The notes under the pieces: generated by a model
The model's input: only the letters and a program-made list of their open reading frames with translations
Databases searched by the model: none
What the model was told of the DNA's origin: nothing
From: a bacterium
Lineage (GTDB): Bacteria > Patescibacteriota > Saccharimonadia > Saccharimonadales > SZUA-47
NCBI GenBank assembly: GCA_030427365.1
Contig: JAUHWW010000001.1
Span: 31,963-95,962, forward strand
DNA length: 64,000 nt
Direction of reading: 5' to 3'
Program-made: the position numbers and the translations under genes
Shown: positions 2,659 to 59,374 of the stretch, piece by piece
Layout of the letters: every line of letters begins with the position of its first letter
Position numbering within the stretch: position 1 is the stretch's first letter

Positions 2659-4664
2659 TGAACGTAAAAGTTTTTAGAGCAAAATCTGTAAAAATAACGT
2701 TAGCTCTATTACTTTCTGTATTGCTATGCAGTACGTTTCTATTTCAAATGATAGGTGGTCGTTCCGTTAGTGGACTTTCGGGATCAGACTTCGATGCCGG
2801 CAATATAATAAGTGATTCTATATTCTACAATTCTTCGTCTATGTCTACTTCACAGATACAGAGTTTTTTGGACTCTAAAGTACCTGTATGCGACACCAAT
2901 GGTACACAACCCTACGGAGGCACAACCCGTGCAGCATATGGCGCATCAAGGGGCTACCCTGCTCCATATACGTGCCTAAAAGACTACTCACAAAGCGTAC
3001 CCTCTATTACCAATAGTGGAAGTGACCTGTGCGGCGGGAGCATAAGCGGGGGCACAAAATCTGCAGCTCAAATTATCTATGACGTTTCGAAAGCGTGTGG
3101 CATAAATCCTCAGACACTAATTGTTCTATTGCAGAAAGAGCAGTCACTTGTAACGGATGACTGGCCGTGGTCAATACAGTACCGCTCAGCAACAGGATAC
3201 GGCTGTCCCGACACTGCTCCATGTGACAGTGAATACTATGGGTTCTTTAATCAAGTCTACCAAGCAGCCAAGGCTTTCCGTCGCTACGAAGCTAATCCTG
3301 ATAGCTATAACTACAAAGCAGACCGCAATAATTATATCTACTATCATCCTAGTTTGGCTGCTTGCGGAGGTACAAATGTTTTCATTGATAACCAAGCGAC
3401 TGCAAATCTTTATATATATACCCCGTACCAACCAAACACAGCTGCATTAAATAACCTCTATGGAACTGGTGATGGGTGTAGCGCGTATGGCAATCGTAAT
3501 TTTTGGCGTATGTTTAATGATTGGTTTGGATCAACACAATTAAATTACGCAGCTGAAATGATTGAAAGTAAACTCTATACCGATCCAGCTAGAACAAACG
3601 AAACCTCAGGCCTTACGGGATATCCTGCAGGGACGAAACTATATGCCAGAATTACTGCAAAAAATGTTGGCAGTAGAACATGGCTAAAAAGCACAACGAG
3701 GGTTGGTACAAGAAGTCCATTTAATCATGCGAGTAGGTTTTACGATCCCTCGACATGGTTGAGTGCAGCTAGGCCAGCAACCATGAGCGAAAATTCTGTC
3801 CAGCCAGGGGAAGAAGCGACTTTTGATTTTACTTTGCTACTCGACGAAGACAATGGTCAGTATACTGACCAGTTCCAGCTTATCGTAGAGGGTCAGGCGT
3901 GGATGGAATATCGTTCAAGGTTCGATATCACAGCTACATTAGATACTCCTTATCGAGCAAAGCTTGTTTCTAGACGTGTTTATTTAGACCAAGCTCAAAC
4001 AGCAAAAGTTGGAAATACCATTCGACCAGGTGAAAAGCTTTACTGGGAAGTGAAGTATAAAAATACAGGATCAGTTACTTGGACAAACGTTAGCACAAAA
4101 ATAGGTACCGTTGATCCATTGAATCGATCTAGTAGTTTCTTCGACCCAGCGACTTGGGAGTCTGCAAGCCGTCCAACACTCATGGAAGAGTCATCTGTCG
4201 CCACGGGTCAAATTGGTACATTTTTGTATACCTCTGTCTCACCCGGATCTGATGGCTTCTTTACCGAGTCTTTAGGTCTGGTGGTTGAGTCGATGGCTTG
4301 GATAAGCAACTCTCATTTCTCTGATGTCATAAGATCCTCAAGTACTATTGACAGGCTATTTGGCGGAGAGAGACTGCTGCCGGGTACTGAGCTCCGTTCT
4401 AGTGGTCACCGACTTATAATGCAAGGTGATGGAAACCTGGTTGTCTACAATCCAGAAGGGCAAGCAACTTGGAACTCTGGAACGTCTGGTGGTAATCGAT
4501 TCATTATGCAAGGTGATGGAAACCTAGTTATGTACAATTCGAGTAATAAGGCGATTTGGTCAAGTGGGACCAAAGGTGGTAATCGATTCATTATGCAAGG
4601 TGATGGAAACCTGGTTATGTACAATTCGAGTAATAAGGCGATTTGGAGTTCAGGAGCTAATTGA
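2658..4664 (+). CDS. secreted protein with C-terminal bulb-type (B-/GNA-like) mannose-binding lectin domain and two internal ~85-aa repeats
   Basis: Signal/TM at N-terminus; three consecutive QxDxNxVxY motifs (MQGDGNLVVY, MQGDGNLVMY x2) in last ~95 aa = one beta-prism II lectin domain; internal repeat TRVGTRSPFNHASRFYDPSTWLSAARPATMSENSV / TKIGTVDPLNRSSSFFDPATWESASRPTLMEESSV. Confidence 0.7.
   Translation: MNVKVFRAKSVKITLALLLSVLLCSTFLFQMIGGRSVSGLSGSDFDAGNIISDSIFYNSSSMSTSQIQSFLDSKVPVCDTNGTQPYGGTTRAAYGASRGYPAPYTCLKDYSQSVPSITNSGSDLCGGSISGGTKSAAQIIYDVSKACGINPQTLIVLLQKEQSLVTDDWPWSIQYRSATGYGCPDTAPCDSEYYGFFNQVYQAAKAFRRYEANPDSYNYKADRNNYIYYHPSLAACGGTNVFIDNQATANLYIYTPYQPNTAALNNLYGTGDGCSAYGNRNFWRMFNDWFGSTQLNYAAEMIESKLYTDPARTNETSGLTGYPAGTKLYARITAKNVGSRTWLKSTTRVGTRSPFNHASRFYDPSTWLSAARPATMSENSVQPGEEATFDFTLLLDEDNGQYTDQFQLIVEGQAWMEYRSRFDITATLDTPYRAKLVSRRVYLDQAQTAKVGNTIRPGEKLYWEVKYKNTGSVTWTNVSTKIGTVDPLNRSSSFFDPATWESASRPTLMEESSVATGQIGTFLYTSVSPGSDGFFTESLGLVVESMAWISNSHFSDVIRSSSTIDRLFGGERLLPGTELRSSGHRLIMQGDGNLVVYNPEGQATWNSGTSGGNRFIMQGDGNLVMYNSSNKAIWSSGTKGGNRFIMQGDGNLVMYNSSNKAIWSSGAN
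4405..4664 (+). repeat. 81-bp-period in-frame tandem repeat (3 copies, last two near-identical at nucleotide level) encoding the three lectin sub-sites
   Basis: ggtaatcgattcattatgcaaggtgatggaaacct[a/g]gttatgtacaattcgagtaataaggcgatttgg occurs at ~4495 and ~4576; diverged copy at ~4414. Confidence 0.7.
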
Positions 4665-54852: not shown

Positions 54853-55473
54853 TCAGTCAGAAATTAGTGATTTTTGTTGATGTCTACGGCTGATGTAGTA
54901 GCCGAGAACTATTGTCACTGCAGGGATAGCGAATAGGATGTCGCCTGCGCCGGTGCTTGGGAGGTCTTCGTCGTTTGAGTCATTGCGAGTAGTATTTGTT
55001 GAAGTATTACTATCACCAGCAACATCGCGAGTGATTGACGCAGCTTCGTCTGAAACCACCCCGCCTTCTTCTACCGCTGATTCATCGCTAGAAGTTGCGC
55101 CATCATTGTCGGTGGTCGAGTCAGCATTGCTCTGATCATTGTCATCTTGGCCAAGTACTGCAATTACTTCGTCATCATCGCTTCGTGGATCAGTTGTCAG
55201 TGGATTCGTGCCATCGACAGTTACTTCACCCTGAGGGGTGTCTTCCTGCGTCGTAGTTTCTGAAGATGAGTCATTATCCGAGATGGTGTCGTACAGCCAC
55301 TTGCCTGCAAAGAATAGGCCGGCGATCACCGCCAGAGTAATGATGAGGCTAAGTAGCGCCATCGCCCAGGCTTTACCTGTGCGCGTACCACTAGAGTTAT
55401 AGCTCGAGCCATAATAATTCTCGAGTTCGGCAATTGTTTGATTGCTGTCTTTGCGGCTAAATGGACTTCTCAT
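54853..55473 (-). CDS. Ser/Thr/Asp-rich surface protein with N-terminal TM and C-terminal LPSTG sortase sorting signal
   Basis: ...DEDLPSTGAGDILFAIPAVTIVLGYYISRRHQQK; consensus promoter upstream. Confidence 0.6.
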   Translation of the reverse strand: MRSPFSRKDSNQTIAELENYYGSSYNSSGTRTGKAWAMALLSLIITLAVIAGLFFAGKWLYDTISDNDSSSETTTQEDTPQGEVTVDGTNPLTTDPRSDDDEVIAVLGQDDNDQSNADSTTDNDGATSSDESAVEEGGVVSDEAASITRDVAGDSNTSTNTTRNDSNDEDLPSTGAGDILFAIPAVTIVLGYYISRRHQQKSLISD

Positions 55474-55526
55474 CTGTTATCTCCCAGGTTGTTACAGTTT
55501 TGACACTCTCCCACCTGTATCTATTC

Positions 55527-55555
55527 ATTTTACCACAGAAAGGGTAAAAAGTCAA
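55527..55555 (-). promoter_or_regulatory. sigma70-type promoter for LPSTG-protein gene
   Basis: Minus strand TTGACT-17-TAAAAT. Confidence 0.4.
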
Positions 55556-55570
55556 TCCATCTAGGGGTCG

Positions 55571-57208
55571 CTACATGCCGAGGCCCATTTGAGGGGCGGC
55601 TCCAGATGTTTCTTCCTTCTCTGGCACGTCGACGACAAGCGCGCCCATGGTCATGCTGGTGCCGGCGATTGAGCTGGCATTCTGCACGGCTTGTTTAGTA
55701 ACGAGGACTGGGTCAACGACGCCGGCTTTCTTCATATCGACGAGCTTATCAGGACTGTTAACGTTAACGCCCTGCCCTGCCTTCGCTGCTTTGACCTTCG
55801 GTAGCCACTCATCTGCGTTGAGGCCGGAGTTTTCCATCAAAATGCGGAAAGGTTGCTGTAAGGCGCGCGCCAAAAGCTGTGCACCGGCGTTTTCTGTCTC
55901 GTCTTTCAGAGATTTTATATCGCTGGATAGATTAACAAGGGTGACACCACCGCCAGGGACGATGCCCTCGTTCATGGCTGCTTTGACGGCCGCAACGGCG
56001 TCATCGACGCGGTATTTCTTCTCTTCGATTTCGGTTTCGCTGGCGCCGCCGACTTTGATAACGGCCACTTTGCCAGAGAGCGCAGCCGAGCGCTTAGTAA
56101 GTTCACCGCGGTCGTAGGAGCTGGTTGAGGCTTTCGCTTGATTTTTTATCTGCGAAACGAGCGCTTTGACATCTGATTTTGCACCTGCACCTTCGACTAT
56201 GGTTGTTTCATCTTTGCTAATTATAACTTTGCGGGCTCCTCCCACAACTTCTTGAGGTGCATCAGCTAAGCTCGCACCTAGCTCAGTCGAAACCACCATT
56301 GCGCCAGTTAATATTGCAATATCATTTAGCACGTCTGTGCGGCGATCTCCGAAGCTCGGGGCTTTGATTGCAACTGTTTTAAAGCCGCCTTTGAGCTTGT
56401 TGAGAATGAGCATCGTCAGCGCGTCGCCTTCGATGTCTTCGGCGATAAGGAAGAGCTCTTTTTTGCCCATGTTGGCGACGAGCTCTAGTACCGGCTGCAT
56501 CTCCTCAACCGTGCTGAGTTTGGCGTCGGTAATGACGATAGCTGGGTTATTGAGAACTGCTTCGAGACGGTTGCCGTCAGTGATCATGAAAGGACTGATG
56601 TAGCCCCTATCGATAGTGAATCCTTCGACGATATCGCTTTCTAGTTCGAGGCCTTGACCCTCTTCGACGGTGACAACGCCGTCCTTACCAACGGCCTCCA
56701 TGACGTCTGCAATCAGCGCACCAATAGCTTTGTCGCCAGCAGATATGGTTGCTACTTCAGCGATGCGGTCTTTACTGCCGGAAATGTCCTCAGCTTGTTT
56801 ATCGAGGCCCTTGATGACGTCTTCCGCCGCTTTTTCTAGCCCTTTGCGCAGCAGCATTGGGTTGTGCCCTGCTGCGATGAGTTTGTTAGCCTCAGACAGG
56901 ATGTGATACGTCAGCACGGTGACGGTTGTGGTGCCATCACCAGCCACGTCATTCATCTTGCTAGCGGCTTGTTTGATAAGTTCAGCGCCGACGCTGTAGC
57001 CGAGCGTTTCATCGTCGACATCAGCGATTTCCACACCTTTTGCCACCGTAACGCCGTCGTGCGTGACGGATGGTCCGCCGTAGCTCTTCGCGATGACGAC
57101 ATTGCGGCCCTTTGGCCCCATCGTGGTTTTTACCGCGTTATACAGAACCTGCGCTCCACCTAAAACTCTGCGGCGGGCGTCTTCGTCATAAAAAACTTTT
57201 TTAGCCAT
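55571..57208 (-). CDS. groL: chaperonin GroEL
   Basis: 545 aa, canonical motifs (AAVEEGIVPGGG-like), C-terminal GGM-type tail MGLGM. Confidence 0.95.
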   Translation of the reverse strand: MAKKVFYDEDARRRVLGGAQVLYNAVKTTMGPKGRNVVIAKSYGGPSVTHDGVTVAKGVEIADVDDETLGYSVGAELIKQAASKMNDVAGDGTTTVTVLTYHILSEANKLIAAGHNPMLLRKGLEKAAEDVIKGLDKQAEDISGSKDRIAEVATISAGDKAIGALIADVMEAVGKDGVVTVEEGQGLELESDIVEGFTIDRGYISPFMITDGNRLEAVLNNPAIVITDAKLSTVEEMQPVLELVANMGKKELFLIAEDIEGDALTMLILNKLKGGFKTVAIKAPSFGDRRTDVLNDIAILTGAMVVSTELGASLADAPQEVVGGARKVIISKDETTIVEGAGAKSDVKALVSQIKNQAKASTSSYDRGELTKRSAALSGKVAVIKVGGASETEIEEKKYRVDDAVAAVKAAMNEGIVPGGGVTLVNLSSDIKSLKDETENAGAQLLARALQQPFRILMENSGLNADEWLPKVKAAKAGQGVNVNSPDKLVDMKKAGVVDPVLVTKQAVQNASSIAGTSMTMGALVVDVPEKEETSGAAPQMGLGM

Positions 57209-57361
57209 CTATTTCTTCTCCTTCTCTAACTTTGCAATCTTTTTCTGAAGCTCTTTGATGTCATCAGTGTTTTTCTTGATAGTGCTGAATTTCTCGAAAA
57301 TCCATAATACCGTTCCGATGATGATGACAATCTGCAGAATGAAAAATATAAATGAAACCAT
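57209..57361 (-). CDS. 50-aa small membrane protein (one TM + Lys/Glu coiled-coil tail) encoded between groES and groEL
   Basis: Not in ORF track; MVSFIFFILQIVIIIGTVLWIFEKFSTIKKNTDDIKELQKKIAKLEKEKK*; starts 5 nt after groES stop, stop codon abuts groEL ATG. Confidence 0.4.
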   Translation of the reverse strand: MVSFIFFILQIVIIIGTVLWIFEKFSTIKKNTDDIKELQKKIAKLEKEKK

Positions 57362-57366
57362 TTCTC

Positions 57367-57672
57367 TTAACTCAACTTCGCGTAGATATTTTCGTTGCGA
57401 ACGAGCAAGTATTCTTCGCCCTCGACTTTGATGTCGGTGTTACTGTAGCCACCAAAGATGACGCGGTCACCGGCTTTGACATCCTTCACCATCGGTCCGA
57501 CGGCGAGTACTTTGGCAAACTTTGGTTTCTCAGTGCCCTTATCTGGCAGGTAGAGCCCACTCGCGGTTTTATTCTTTGCCTCTTCCTGTTGCATCACCAC
57601 ATAGTCAGCGAGTGGCGTGATTGGTACTTTGTTCATATATCCTCCCGCAGTGGTTTTGGAGCGGTCATCCAC
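57367..57672 (-). CDS. groS: co-chaperonin GroES (true start possibly ATG at 57636)
   Basis: ...TASGLYLPDKGTEKPKFAKVLAVGPM... Confidence 0.9.
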   Translation of the reverse strand: MDDRSKTTAGGYMNKVPITPLADYVVMQQEEAKNKTASGLYLPDKGTEKPKFAKVLAVGPMVKDVKAGDRVIFGGYSNTDIKVEGEEYLLVRNENIYAKLS

Positions 57673-57813
57673 TTCTCTCCTGCGTCAATTTTGCTCGTCG
57701 TATGCTTGATACGCCACCGCAAAATGTGCTCGGTTAGAAGCAAATGACCCTTGGCCAAAAGCCACTGCTCATTAAGTGATACCCTCTGAATCGTAAAGGT
57801 GAATCAGCAAGCA

Positions 57814-57870
57814 TTAGCAATTAAACTAAATGAGTGCCAATTTCTAGCACTCATCATACTGGTCTGCTAA
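57814..57870. promoter_or_regulatory. nested palindrome upstream of groES (CIRCE-like but everted): TTAGCA-N12-GAGTGC-N9-GCACTC-N12-TGCTAA
   Basis: ttagcaattaaactaaatgagtgccaatttctagcactcatcatactggtctgctaa. Confidence 0.35.
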
Positions 57871-57925
57871 CGAACTCGTCAAGCTGTATTCTAGGCCTAG
57901 TTTCGATGAATTAGAAGCATAAGAA

Positions 57926-58897
57926 TCACTTATTAATGAGATCCCTGAGCTCGTTAATAAGCTCTTTCCTTGACTGTGTTCTATCACCTTTTTGTTGTGC
58001 ACCAAAAAAAGCACTACGCCAATTCAGGTATGCTTCATAAAAATGCTCGTCGAACAATTCTTTCAGTTCTTGCTTTGAATATCCTTCGCGCTTAGTTGTC
58101 TCAACGAAGTCCATTTCAAGTGATCGAACGTCATGAAAAGCGGTGTTTATATCAAGTTTTTTTGCGTCACCGTCTGCTATGTTCGATCTACCCCAATCGA
58201 TCAGGTACGGTCCACCGCCGCTTTGAGGGTCGGGTAAAACAATATTACGAAGTGCAACGTCGCCGTGCGCGATGCCTTTTGCATGCAAGAATGCAAGCTC
58301 TTTTGCAACTCGTCCTAAGACGGATGAATTATTGTCACCCTCAGTGATTGCTTCAACTGAAAATTTGTCCAAAGAGCGAATCGATCTATCTAGCAGAGAA
58401 ATGGTTCCGCCTCCTCCGTTCTCAGTTAGGTAAAAGCCAAGTGTTTGTGTGTTGTCTAGCCCTAGGTGTCTTGCGAACATGTTACGTGCAAAGTCTTCAA
58501 GGACACTGTCCGAAGATTTAGGGTTGTGCGGTCGAAAAGCGAGTGAAAAATGCCTATCCGTCTCTGGGCTAGAAAATTCATGCGCGAAAAAGCCGTCAGC
58601 AGAAGAGGAGCCTCTTGTGTCAATTCTGGCTCCTGGAACCATTTTGTCGAAAGGCAACGGGATGCTGTCATCCTGTAGATAGTCTGATCCGAATGTCGGG
58701 TCTAAGAGATATGTACCGGGCGGTAAGTACTCTTGCAACTCAGTTACTCTCTCAACGTATGTTTGATAATCATCGTCAACACCCACCTGGCAAAAATCTG
58801 GCAGATCGTTGACGATAGGGTTTTCGTGGAGATCATCGAGGTACTGTCGACGAAAGATTTCAGATTTAGGTTCGGTTTGAAGCGTTTCTGTTTTCAT
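57926..58897 (-). CDS. protein-kinase-like fold phosphotransferase (APH/choline-kinase/Kdo-kinase-like)
   Basis: Catalytic loop HGDVALRNIVL and metal-binding IDWG (DFG-equivalent). Confidence 0.5.
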   Translation of the reverse strand: MKTETLQTEPKSEIFRRQYLDDLHENPIVNDLPDFCQVGVDDDYQTYVERVTELQEYLPPGTYLLDPTFGSDYLQDDSIPLPFDKMVPGARIDTRGSSSADGFFAHEFSSPETDRHFSLAFRPHNPKSSDSVLEDFARNMFARHLGLDNTQTLGFYLTENGGGGTISLLDRSIRSLDKFSVEAITEGDNNSSVLGRVAKELAFLHAKGIAHGDVALRNIVLPDPQSGGGPYLIDWGRSNIADGDAKKLDINTAFHDVRSLEMDFVETTKREGYSKQELKELFDEHFYEAYLNWRSAFFGAQQKGDRTQSRKELINELRDLINK

Positions 58898-58924
58898 GTT
58901 GGATTTTTTTAGTCTTTGGTGTGC

Positions 58925-59374
58925 TTATGAATTTGTTGCAAGTCCTCCGATTGCTCGAAAGCGCTGCATACCGGAAACGAAAGTCGGTAGCAATCGGATG
59001 GGAGCATCTCCCTCTGTAGCGAAATTCATATGGACGAGGTGCATACGTAGCTGCTCGGATTCAATCCCACTGATTTGCTCCCCTCGCTTTAGTGAGTCGA
59101 ATATTTCATCCTCGTACGCAGCAGTTATATCAGCAGAGAGCGCGGTGATTGGCACGACACCTATCGGTATTTCATAACGACGTAAATATCCTGATTGCAC
59201 ATCGGCTCTTTGGGCAGCTAATAAGCCTGCTGCCTCTGCTCTATCAAGTGCCGCCGCCTGCTCAGCAGTTAACTGGTGACGTTCAGCTTCTACAAAAAAT
59301 ACTCCGTCATTCTCATGTAAAACTTCAAATGGTGTCGTGGGCATTTTTTCTATCCAAGTGTTATTCATATGCAA
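58925..59374 (-). CDS. hypothetical protein
   Basis: ORF track, 149 aa. Confidence 0.4.
   Translation of the reverse strand: MHMNNTWIEKMPTTPFEVLHENDGVFFVEAERHQLTAEQAAALDRAEAAGLLAAQRADVQSGYLRRYEIPIGVVPITALSADITAAYEDEIFDSLKRGEQISGIESEQLRMHLVHMNFATEGDAPIRLLPTFVSGMQRFRAIGGLATNS

Follow-up and report, generated by a model that had tools for sequence, protein, structure and literature searches.

Few bacterial two-gene operons are as highly conserved as groES-groEL, and the spacer between the two genes is usually treated as non-coding. In a 64,000-nt stretch of DNA from a member of the Saccharibacteria (Saccharimonadales, SZUA-47; contig JAUHWW010000001.1, positions 31,963–95,962 of the forward strand), hereafter the window, this spacer is filled by a small open reading frame (ORF). 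The canonical groESL operon of the HrcA/CIRCE (controlling inverted repeat of chaperone expression) type has groES followed by groEL on one strand, a Shine-Dalgarno sequence belonging to groEL itself, and a CIRCE-like palindrome lying over a promoter-like site, all of which are kept in the window. However, the canonical operon is bicistronic, whereas here a conserved coding cistron occupies the spacer and is translationally packed against both neighbors. Our literature search yielded no precedent for a tricistronic groESL operon or for a gene lying between groES and groEL, the papers found being concerned with spacer length or with GroES-GroEL interaction. The arrangement is a tricistronic groES-X-groEL variant of an otherwise known operon.

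The encoded protein can be compared with small bacterial membrane proteins of stress responses, for example AcrZ, MgtS, YohP, and other Escherichia coli proteins shorter than 60 amino acids. The proteins described below resemble them in size (48–58 amino acids), in having a single transmembrane (TM) helix, in their presumed co-expression with a stress regulon, and in being dispensable and lineage-restricted. They share no sequence relationship with the E. coli proteins, none of which is known to sit between the two chaperonin genes or to be doubly coupled to them in translation.

A third cistron between groES and groEL

The locus comprises the following elements.

57636–57367, minus strand: groES (Cpn10), 89 amino acids from ATG, TAA stop; relatives in Saccharibacteria
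57361 (ATG) to 57209, minus strand: small ORF, third cistron and type A member of the family described below, 50 amino acids plus TAG (57211–57209), MVSFIFFILQIVIIIGTVLWIFEKFSTIKKNTDDIKELQKKIAKLEKEKK
57223–57218, minus strand: groEL Shine-Dalgarno sequence AAGGAG, within the final codons of the small ORF and 9 nt before the groEL ATG
57208–55571, minus strand: groEL (Cpn60), 545 amino acids, aligning over its full length with relatives

All three genes lie on the minus strand, and the small ORF takes up the entire 158-nt spacer. Its ATG follows the groES TAA after 5 nt (GAGAA), and its TAG directly abuts the groEL ATG at 57208, with both in the same reading frame. This geometry had been described correctly in every detail by an earlier, sequence-only reading of the window. 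That reading also called the ORF unlisted, which is true in that it has no name and no Pfam domain, but the exact protein had already been called by gene predictors in NCBI, ENA, and Logan. The identity of groES rests on PF00166, precomputed on the identical gene in contigs L028–L031, and that of groEL on PF00118, precomputed on the orthologue at locus L055. The two are co-oriented, adjacent, and alignable with relatives as expected of groESL; the short non-coding spacer of a bicistronic operon is replaced by a conserved ORF under selection.

It is almost certain that the small ORF is a real protein-coding gene. Homologs were found at the same position in other Saccharibacteria, giving a family of seven distinct proteins in three subtypes (A, B, and C) from six loci, and all seven are encoded between groES and groEL. 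Together with the purifying selection described below, this bears out the earlier suggestion of a third cistron in groESL, and the proposed search for the ORF in related groESL loci accordingly gave a positive answer. Subtype A comprises the window, L055, and L059; subtype B comprises L035, L059, and L060; and subtype C was found at L002 only.

An ORF filling the spacer is rarely produced by chance, arising in 34 of 20,000 dinucleotide-preserving shuffles and in 7 of 20,000 mononucleotide shuffles. Nor are such ORFs a common property of groESL spacers: none of the 44 other groES-groEL spacers measured by tblastn (−4 to 226 nt, many of them 80–226 nt) contained an ORF of at least 45 amino acids.

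Divergence among the copies shows selection at the protein level. Type B pairs have dN/dS of 0.14–0.21. In type A pairs synonymous sites are saturated, with a proportion of synonymous differences (pS) of 0.87–0.93 and a proportion of non-synonymous differences (pN) of 0.20–0.28. Differences fall mostly at third codon positions, giving a three-base periodicity, and pS far exceeds pN in the TM half and the tail half alike, which argues that conservation of the tail is not merely that of an RNA or ribosome-binding element. Non-synonymous divergence of the ORF is similar to that of the neighboring groES in the same locus pairs (groES pN 0.10–0.23). Codon composition of the window ORF agrees with a resident gene: GC content at third codon positions is host-gene-like (0.54), the low overall GC of 0.33 stemming from positions 1 and 2, and the codon-usage log-odds score is +10.5 bits and positive in the ORF frame only. 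Contigs L028–L031 carry the identical protein and are 99.9–100% identical to the window, and L055–L058 are mutually identical; this near-identity leaves no population-level dN/dS to be drawn from either set.

A structured RNA in place of a gene can be ruled out for the window spacer, which shows no excess structure when folded (z = +1.36), and an Rfam scan of positions 55000–59000 gave no match.

Synonymous divergence of the type B ORFs (pS 0.35–0.54) is lower than that of flanking groES (0.65–0.75) and groEL (0.79–0.81) in the same pairs (L035, L059, and L060). Possible explanations include lateral exchange of the cassette, additional constraint at the RNA level, or AT-biased codon choice.

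A family of small membrane proteins

A context-blind profile search with the window and L002 ORFs against 1.84 billion representative proteins returned P0003 (49 amino acids, E 1e-6) and P0005 (48 amino acids), both encoded between Cpn10 and Cpn60, in the case of P0003 in four contigs. P0009 and P0010 were added by a word-indexed search with a wider alignment; their genes and that of P0008 likewise lie between Cpn10 and Cpn60, with P0010 at L060. Word-indexed protein searches with the ORF alone or with a two-sequence alignment recovered only the queries. The L002 ORF encodes 53 amino acids (MDVVYNLTFSLLLVIVLFGLLYIVVKKSGISPYSSRRINELEDKVEKLEKENK) and its TAG also abuts the groEL ATG, while that of L035 encodes 55 (MDDMTLYNLAGIITIFLVPALIYSLVSLFGTVRHYQKEVEKLNRRVVLLEAKNKE). 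Four further candidates (P0006, P0007, P0011, and P0012) were rejected as generic TM/coiled-coil look-alikes from unrelated contexts, P0012 following the end of a PilM-like gene, and two from the profile searches (P0004 and P0013) were excluded as repeat or coiled-coil proteins. No relatives were found in viral contigs or in phage and plasmid collections.

Profile-profile comparison with hhalign gave 93% for subtypes A and C, 78% for A and B, and 72% for B and C. Judged from these alignments, homology of A and C is likely, and that of B to either of them is probable. Pairwise identity across subtypes is only 18–47%; the hydrophobic helix and the heptad pattern are nonetheless kept. At L059 two members stand in tandem, in the order groES, P0009 (58 amino acids, type B), P0005 (48 amino acids, type A), groEL.

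The L059 spacer (1542–1971, 433 nt) contains three packed ORFs, as a putative 34-amino-acid ORF, X (MKKIINFVKTVIINLFADAKQQSEVKKTFTKRGK), is found between the type B and type A members. The successive junctions read TAAATG, TAGAAATG, TAATG, and TAAGCTATG. ORF X has a single occurrence, at L059.

Two features define the architecture of the protein in the window.

57296–57352, minus strand: predicted TM helix, codons 4–22, FIFFILQIVIIIGTVLWIF, mean Kyte-Doolittle hydropathy 2.80 over 19 residues
57227–57259, minus strand: heptad a/d motif [IV]xxLxxx[IV]xxL in the charged C-terminal tail, codons 35–45 (IKELQKKIAKL), present in 7/7 members

The mean of the 19-residue hydropathy window lies between 2.1 and 3.1 in all seven members. 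Within the helix, Q10 is invariant at mid-membrane in the three type A proteins, and type B proteins conserve a mid-helix Pro along with an N-terminal YNL motif. The tail motif amounts to two heptads with their a and d positions occupied, and L38, L45, and E46 are invariant. Flanking regions differ in charge, with an N-terminal flank of 0–10 residues that is acidic or neutral and lacks Lys and Arg, and a charged, net positive C-terminal tail of 26–30 residues whose membrane-proximal flank is rich in K and R. AlphaFold2, given the seven-sequence alignment, predicts a single helix over residues 2–49 (pLDDT 86). Among PDB sequences the tail comes closest to designed or GCN4-type coiled-coil peptides, though not significantly. 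These features support the single TM helix and coiled-coil tail that the sequence-only reading had proposed for the window ORF.

With a helix of at least 19 residues, no positively charged n-region, and a length below ~60 amino acids, these proteins have the properties of generic small bitopic membrane proteins and are predicted to insert as such. From the positive-inside rule, and because a charged tail is hard to translocate, they are likely to be oriented N-out/C-in, which would leave the tail in the cytoplasm. Types B and C allow a clear prediction, whereas that for type A is weaker.

Searches of Pfam, NCBIfam, PHROGs, and PDB sequences gave nothing above threshold. The commonest sub-threshold Pfam match was LapA_dom (PF06305), in 4/7 members at 10–17.6 bits against a cut-off of 28. 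LapA (YciS), an inner-membrane protein associated with heat shock, carries a short cytoplasmic coiled coil after its last TM helix, and the alignments cover only that C-terminal half (profile positions ~21–63 of 64). LapA_dom has two TM helices, whereas the proteins here have one and are accompanied by no LapB partner. To our knowledge Saccharibacteria have no lipopolysaccharide, and a role in its assembly is not expected. We treat the resemblance to LapA as an analogy of function, not as membership. The products form a new family of small bitopic membrane proteins, as yet without a name, whose genes were found in some Saccharibacteria and there only within the groESL operon.

Operon signals and translational coupling

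Upstream of groES, the window contains three overlapping signals.

57882–57853, minus strand: promoter-like site TTGACG-18-TATGAT, upstream of groES
57870–57844, minus strand: degenerate CIRCE TTAGCAGAC-N9-GAGTGCTAG, overlapping the promoter-like site
57852–57832, minus strand: perfect palindrome GAGTGC-N9-GCACTC, overlapping the promoter-like site

Canonical CIRCE (TAGCACTC-N9-GAGTGCTA) lies upstream of groES in L009, L010, L011, L014, and other Saccharibacteria loci. No promoter-like or terminator-like sites were found inside or flanking the small ORF on either strand. The packed junctions and the groEL Shine-Dalgarno sequence inside the ORF suggest that it lies on the same mRNA as the chaperonin, and it would be expressed from that CIRCE-type regulated transcript, presumably under heat-shock control.

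The 'arm-swapped' palindrome GAGTGC-N9-GCACTC is created by a third arm, TTGGCACTC, that follows the degenerate CIRCE. The same palindrome stands upstream of groES in L001 (115–135), the nearest relative of the window.

Junctions are tight throughout the family, with −1 to +5 nt between the groES stop and the ORF start and 0–5 nt between the ORF stop and the groEL ATG. ORFs directly after groES form weak duplexes with the anti-Shine-Dalgarno sequence (−0.7 to −3.6 kcal/mol; window ORF −2.9), compared with −8.4 to −10.3 kcal/mol for groES (exception L035, −2.4) and −7.7 to −9.3 kcal/mol for groEL (window −9.3; exception L059, −4.4). The type A ORF of L059, the sole member that is not directly after groES, is preceded by its own strong Shine-Dalgarno sequence (−8.6 kcal/mol). 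Since ORFs directly after groES lack such a sequence and their last codons contain that of groEL, translational coupling is indicated on both sides. From this anatomy we infer termination-reinitiation coupling to groES, with ribosomes that finish groES probably reinitiating on the small ORF, and groEL initiation that would be partly coupled and partly independent.

The small ORF and groEL share a reading frame at each of the four loci of types A and C, with just the stop codon plus 0 or 3 nt between them (TAG ATG or TAA NNN ATG), at the following junctions.

57206–57211, window
~3430–3438, L002
3148–3156, L055
1969–1977, L059

At two type B loci the ORF ends 4–5 nt from groEL and is out of frame. 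The in-frame arrangement is probably a by-product of ribosome-binding-site spacing.

Role of the small protein

On balance we think it probable that the small ORF, as the third cistron in a groES-X-groEL operon of the heat-shock type, encodes a co-expressed, membrane-anchored accessory protein at the cytoplasmic face of the membrane. The protein would consist of ~50 residues with almost no N-terminal extension, one TM helix, and a ~28-residue charged C-terminal helix bearing two leucine-zipper-type heptads. Its N-terminus would be outside and its tail in the cytoplasm, where the heptad motif, together with the conserved polar residue in the TM helix, probably mediates self-association or binding of a partner. 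We hypothesize that such a dispensable, lineage-restricted protein would be delivered to the cytoplasmic membrane face whenever the chaperonin is induced, where it could protect the membrane or control a partner located there, perhaps by serving as a dock for the chaperonin. A narrower and hypothetical form of this role would be direct binding to GroEL or GroES.

Several observations weigh against this reading. Sampling independent of the ORF, by GroES-based scans of genome and metagenome collections that put the window in Saccharibacteria (TM7, CPR), gave 19 related Saccharibacteria loci, of which just two (L002 and L035) have a spacer-filling ORF, so that the distribution is patchy; most of the 19 have spacers of 6–56 nt, and those of the closest relatives measure 9–48 nt. 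Over GroES and the first 125 residues of GroEL, the nearest relative, L001, shares 92% identity with the window, and its spacer of 12 nt has no ORF. Over the same region L009 is 96% identical to the type B locus L060, and its 109-nt spacer has no ORF either. Such close relatives imply that the gene is dispensable and not needed for chaperonin function, and in a full-length GroEL alignment no column discriminates between loci with and without the ORF. Part of the conservation of the tail is not protein-driven, as its C-terminal Lys and Glu residues are partly set by the purine-rich groEL ribosome-binding site, and the groEL Shine-Dalgarno sequence has certainly influenced the last codons. In addition, the topology is predicted from just hydropathy and the positive-inside rule, with weak flanking charges in type A, and because homology of A and B is no more than probable, part of the family could be convergent.

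Absence from close relatives, which the sequence-only reading took as a sign of a spurious ORF, is seen at L001, but more distant relatives retain intact copies with mostly synonymous change, which points to loss or gain of an accessory gene instead. ORF-bearing loci are scattered on a neighbor-joining tree of GroES and the first 125 GroEL residues; the tree is unbootstrapped, and any order of gains and losses drawn from it is tentative. The sub-cluster of L059 (B and A), L055 (A), L060 (B), and L009 (none) looks like differential loss from an ancestor with both B and A. The gene is accessory and often lost, and it is under purifying selection where present.

The alternative that survives best, possible though not favored by us, is that the gene arose in or landed in an expandable spacer that offers strong expression, and that its product has nothing to do with the chaperonin and acts on a different membrane protein, as do small-protein regulators such as AcrZ, MgtS, and MgrB. 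The spacer is indeed very plastic in this clade, where it may be empty or hold ORF A, ORF B, the two together, or a structured RNA element. T-rich and A-rich sequence easily encodes hydrophobic and Lys-rich peptides. Conserved intramembrane residues (Gln in type A, Pro in type B) suggest helix-helix contacts within the membrane, and frequent loss of the gene fits as well. Against it, the context-blind profile search found no member outside the groESL spacer (7/7 inside), and constraint is as strong as on GroES.

A dedicated tether or regulator of the chaperonin, as suggested by the sequence-only reading, is a further candidate, albeit an unlikely one. Here the cytoplasmic coiled-coil tail would bind one of the chaperonin proteins, GroEL or GroES; alternatively, the groESL polysome would be dragged to the membrane as the small protein inserts during its translation. 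Either way, part of the chaperonin would function at the membrane. The design has a precedent by analogy in subunit b of F-type ATPase, whose N-terminal TM anchor and cytoplasmic coiled coil hold a soluble oligomeric machine at the membrane, which is what a tether would need. The subunit b tail is far longer than the ~28-residue tail here, and a match to subunit b' was seen in one member at 12.7 bits against a cut-off of 174. In favor of a tether, all seven family members keep their position between the chaperonin genes, the two-sided coupling would link synthesis of the small protein to that of GroES and GroEL, and the predicted cytoplasmic tail shares a compartment with GroEL. Heat stress has been reported to bring about membrane association of GroESL (Torok et al. 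1997, as cited in PMC11763710), which keeps a tether plausible. Against it stand the lack of any GroEL column that tracks the ORF, close relatives that manage without it, and an interface limited to two heptads.

A more specific proposal, to which we give less credence still, is a dedicated membrane receptor in some Saccharibacteria: an N-out/C-in protein, made stoichiometrically from the groESL mRNA, that docks GroEL/GroES or the translating groESL polysome. As a bolder variant, the in-frame position of the ORF at type A and C loci means that read-through would fuse the membrane anchor to GroEL, and occasional read-through of the stop codon would yield a TM-anchored GroEL subunit.

It is improbable that the ORF is purely a translational coupling device, that is, an upstream ORF whose translation alone matters, for instance in coupling groEL across a long spacer, and whose peptide has no function. 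Its start at the groES stop, the stop codon 0–5 nt from the groEL ATG, and the groEL Shine-Dalgarno sequence inside the ORF would all suit such a device. A leader peptide of this type should be free of amino acid constraint and conserved in position and length only, whereas dN/dS is 0.14–0.21 in type B pairs and purifying selection acts on both halves of the protein. The helix and heptad pattern persist across divergent subtypes, and relatives couple well with 9–48-nt spacers and no ORF.

Very improbable, too, are two other identities: a divisome protein like FtsB, DivIC, or FtsL, and a peptide that damages membranes, such as a type I toxin, a holin, or a viroporin-like protein. FtsB, DivIC, and FtsL do share the single TM helix followed by a leucine-zipper-like helix, and weak matches occur to DivIC (PF04977, 18.7 bits against a cut-off of 28.9), FtsL (NF049847, 16.2 against 50), YonT (14.4 against 45), Vpu (sub-threshold in 3/7 members), and holin and spanin PHROGs (E ~0.04–0.1). 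All lie far below curated cut-offs and vary between members. The FtsB/DivIC likeness put forward from the sequence alone turns out to be one of shape: a single member of the seven matches DivIC, and the divisome proteins are N-in/C-out with the coiled coil outside the cytoplasm, opposite to the topology predicted here. They are also about twice as long (~90–120 amino acids), with a C-terminal domain beyond the zipper, within which the proteins here end, and they have cell-division gene neighborhoods in place of groES and groEL. A toxin is further disfavored by the sense orientation of the gene in an essential, highly expressed operon with no promoter of its own or antisense promoter detected, and a toxin or holin by the lack of phage, viral, or plasmid relatives among the collections searched.

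Finally, a chance ORF in a non-coding spacer, which its short length, AT-richness, lack of a database name or domain, and absence from the nearest relative might suggest, is effectively refuted by the shuffles, its recurrence in six divergent loci, the low dN/dS and three-base periodicity, the frame-specific codon-usage score, and the ORF-free control spacers.

An ultrasmall, genome-reduced lineage of episymbionts thus keeps a selected small membrane protein, sometimes two, between its chaperonin genes, with coupling that we infer on both sides. If the accessory protein that we favor does act with the chaperonin, no accessory factor of a bacterial group I chaperonin would have been known before it to be encoded in the operon, and it would provide a genetic handle on the long-discussed association of chaperonins with membranes. 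Under the receptor proposal the operon would encode a 'membrane-tethered chaperonin', with the first accessory subunit inside a bacterial groESL operon. Otherwise it is a clean natural case of a small-protein gene living, and possibly born, in the spacer of an essential operon. In either case, ORFs of ~50 codons in annotated 'spacers' can be real genes.

A leader element upstream of groES

A second conserved element was found in the 5' leader of groES.

57640–57762, extending to ~57794, minus strand: conserved structured element in the leader 5' of groES, ~120 nt in the form of a long imperfect hairpin

It belongs to the operon leader and is separate from the small ORF. Besides the window, copies occur at L009 (250–372), L008 (2225–2346), and L032 (975–1098 and 481–603). 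Four copies were retrieved by nhmmer with E values of 1e-45 to 2e-24, and a fifth by a covariance model (cmsearch, 32.5 bits). Each stands immediately 5' of a chaperonin gene, which is groES in the window, L009, and L032, and groEL, with the element inside the spacer, in L008 and L032. The motifs ACGAGCAC, CGTAT...ATACG, and CGCAG are invariant, and compensatory changes are seen in 18 of 38 pairs. The element matches no Rfam family. On these grounds it is a candidate for a new chaperonin leader RNA that might act as a thermosensor, attenuator, or processing site.

Other features of the loci

In L056 (575–2217) groEL is called as two pieces, of 462 and 56 amino acids, which probably reflects a frameshift or misassembly, the metagenome contig being of low coverage. 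In the window, positions 57926–58897 (minus strand), upstream of the groESL promoter, encode a 323-amino-acid protein with a kinase-like HGDVALRNIVL...IDWG motif and no precomputed Pfam match on the identical contigs. This gene is not kept beside groESL elsewhere, and other loci have a Mur ligase gene upstream.

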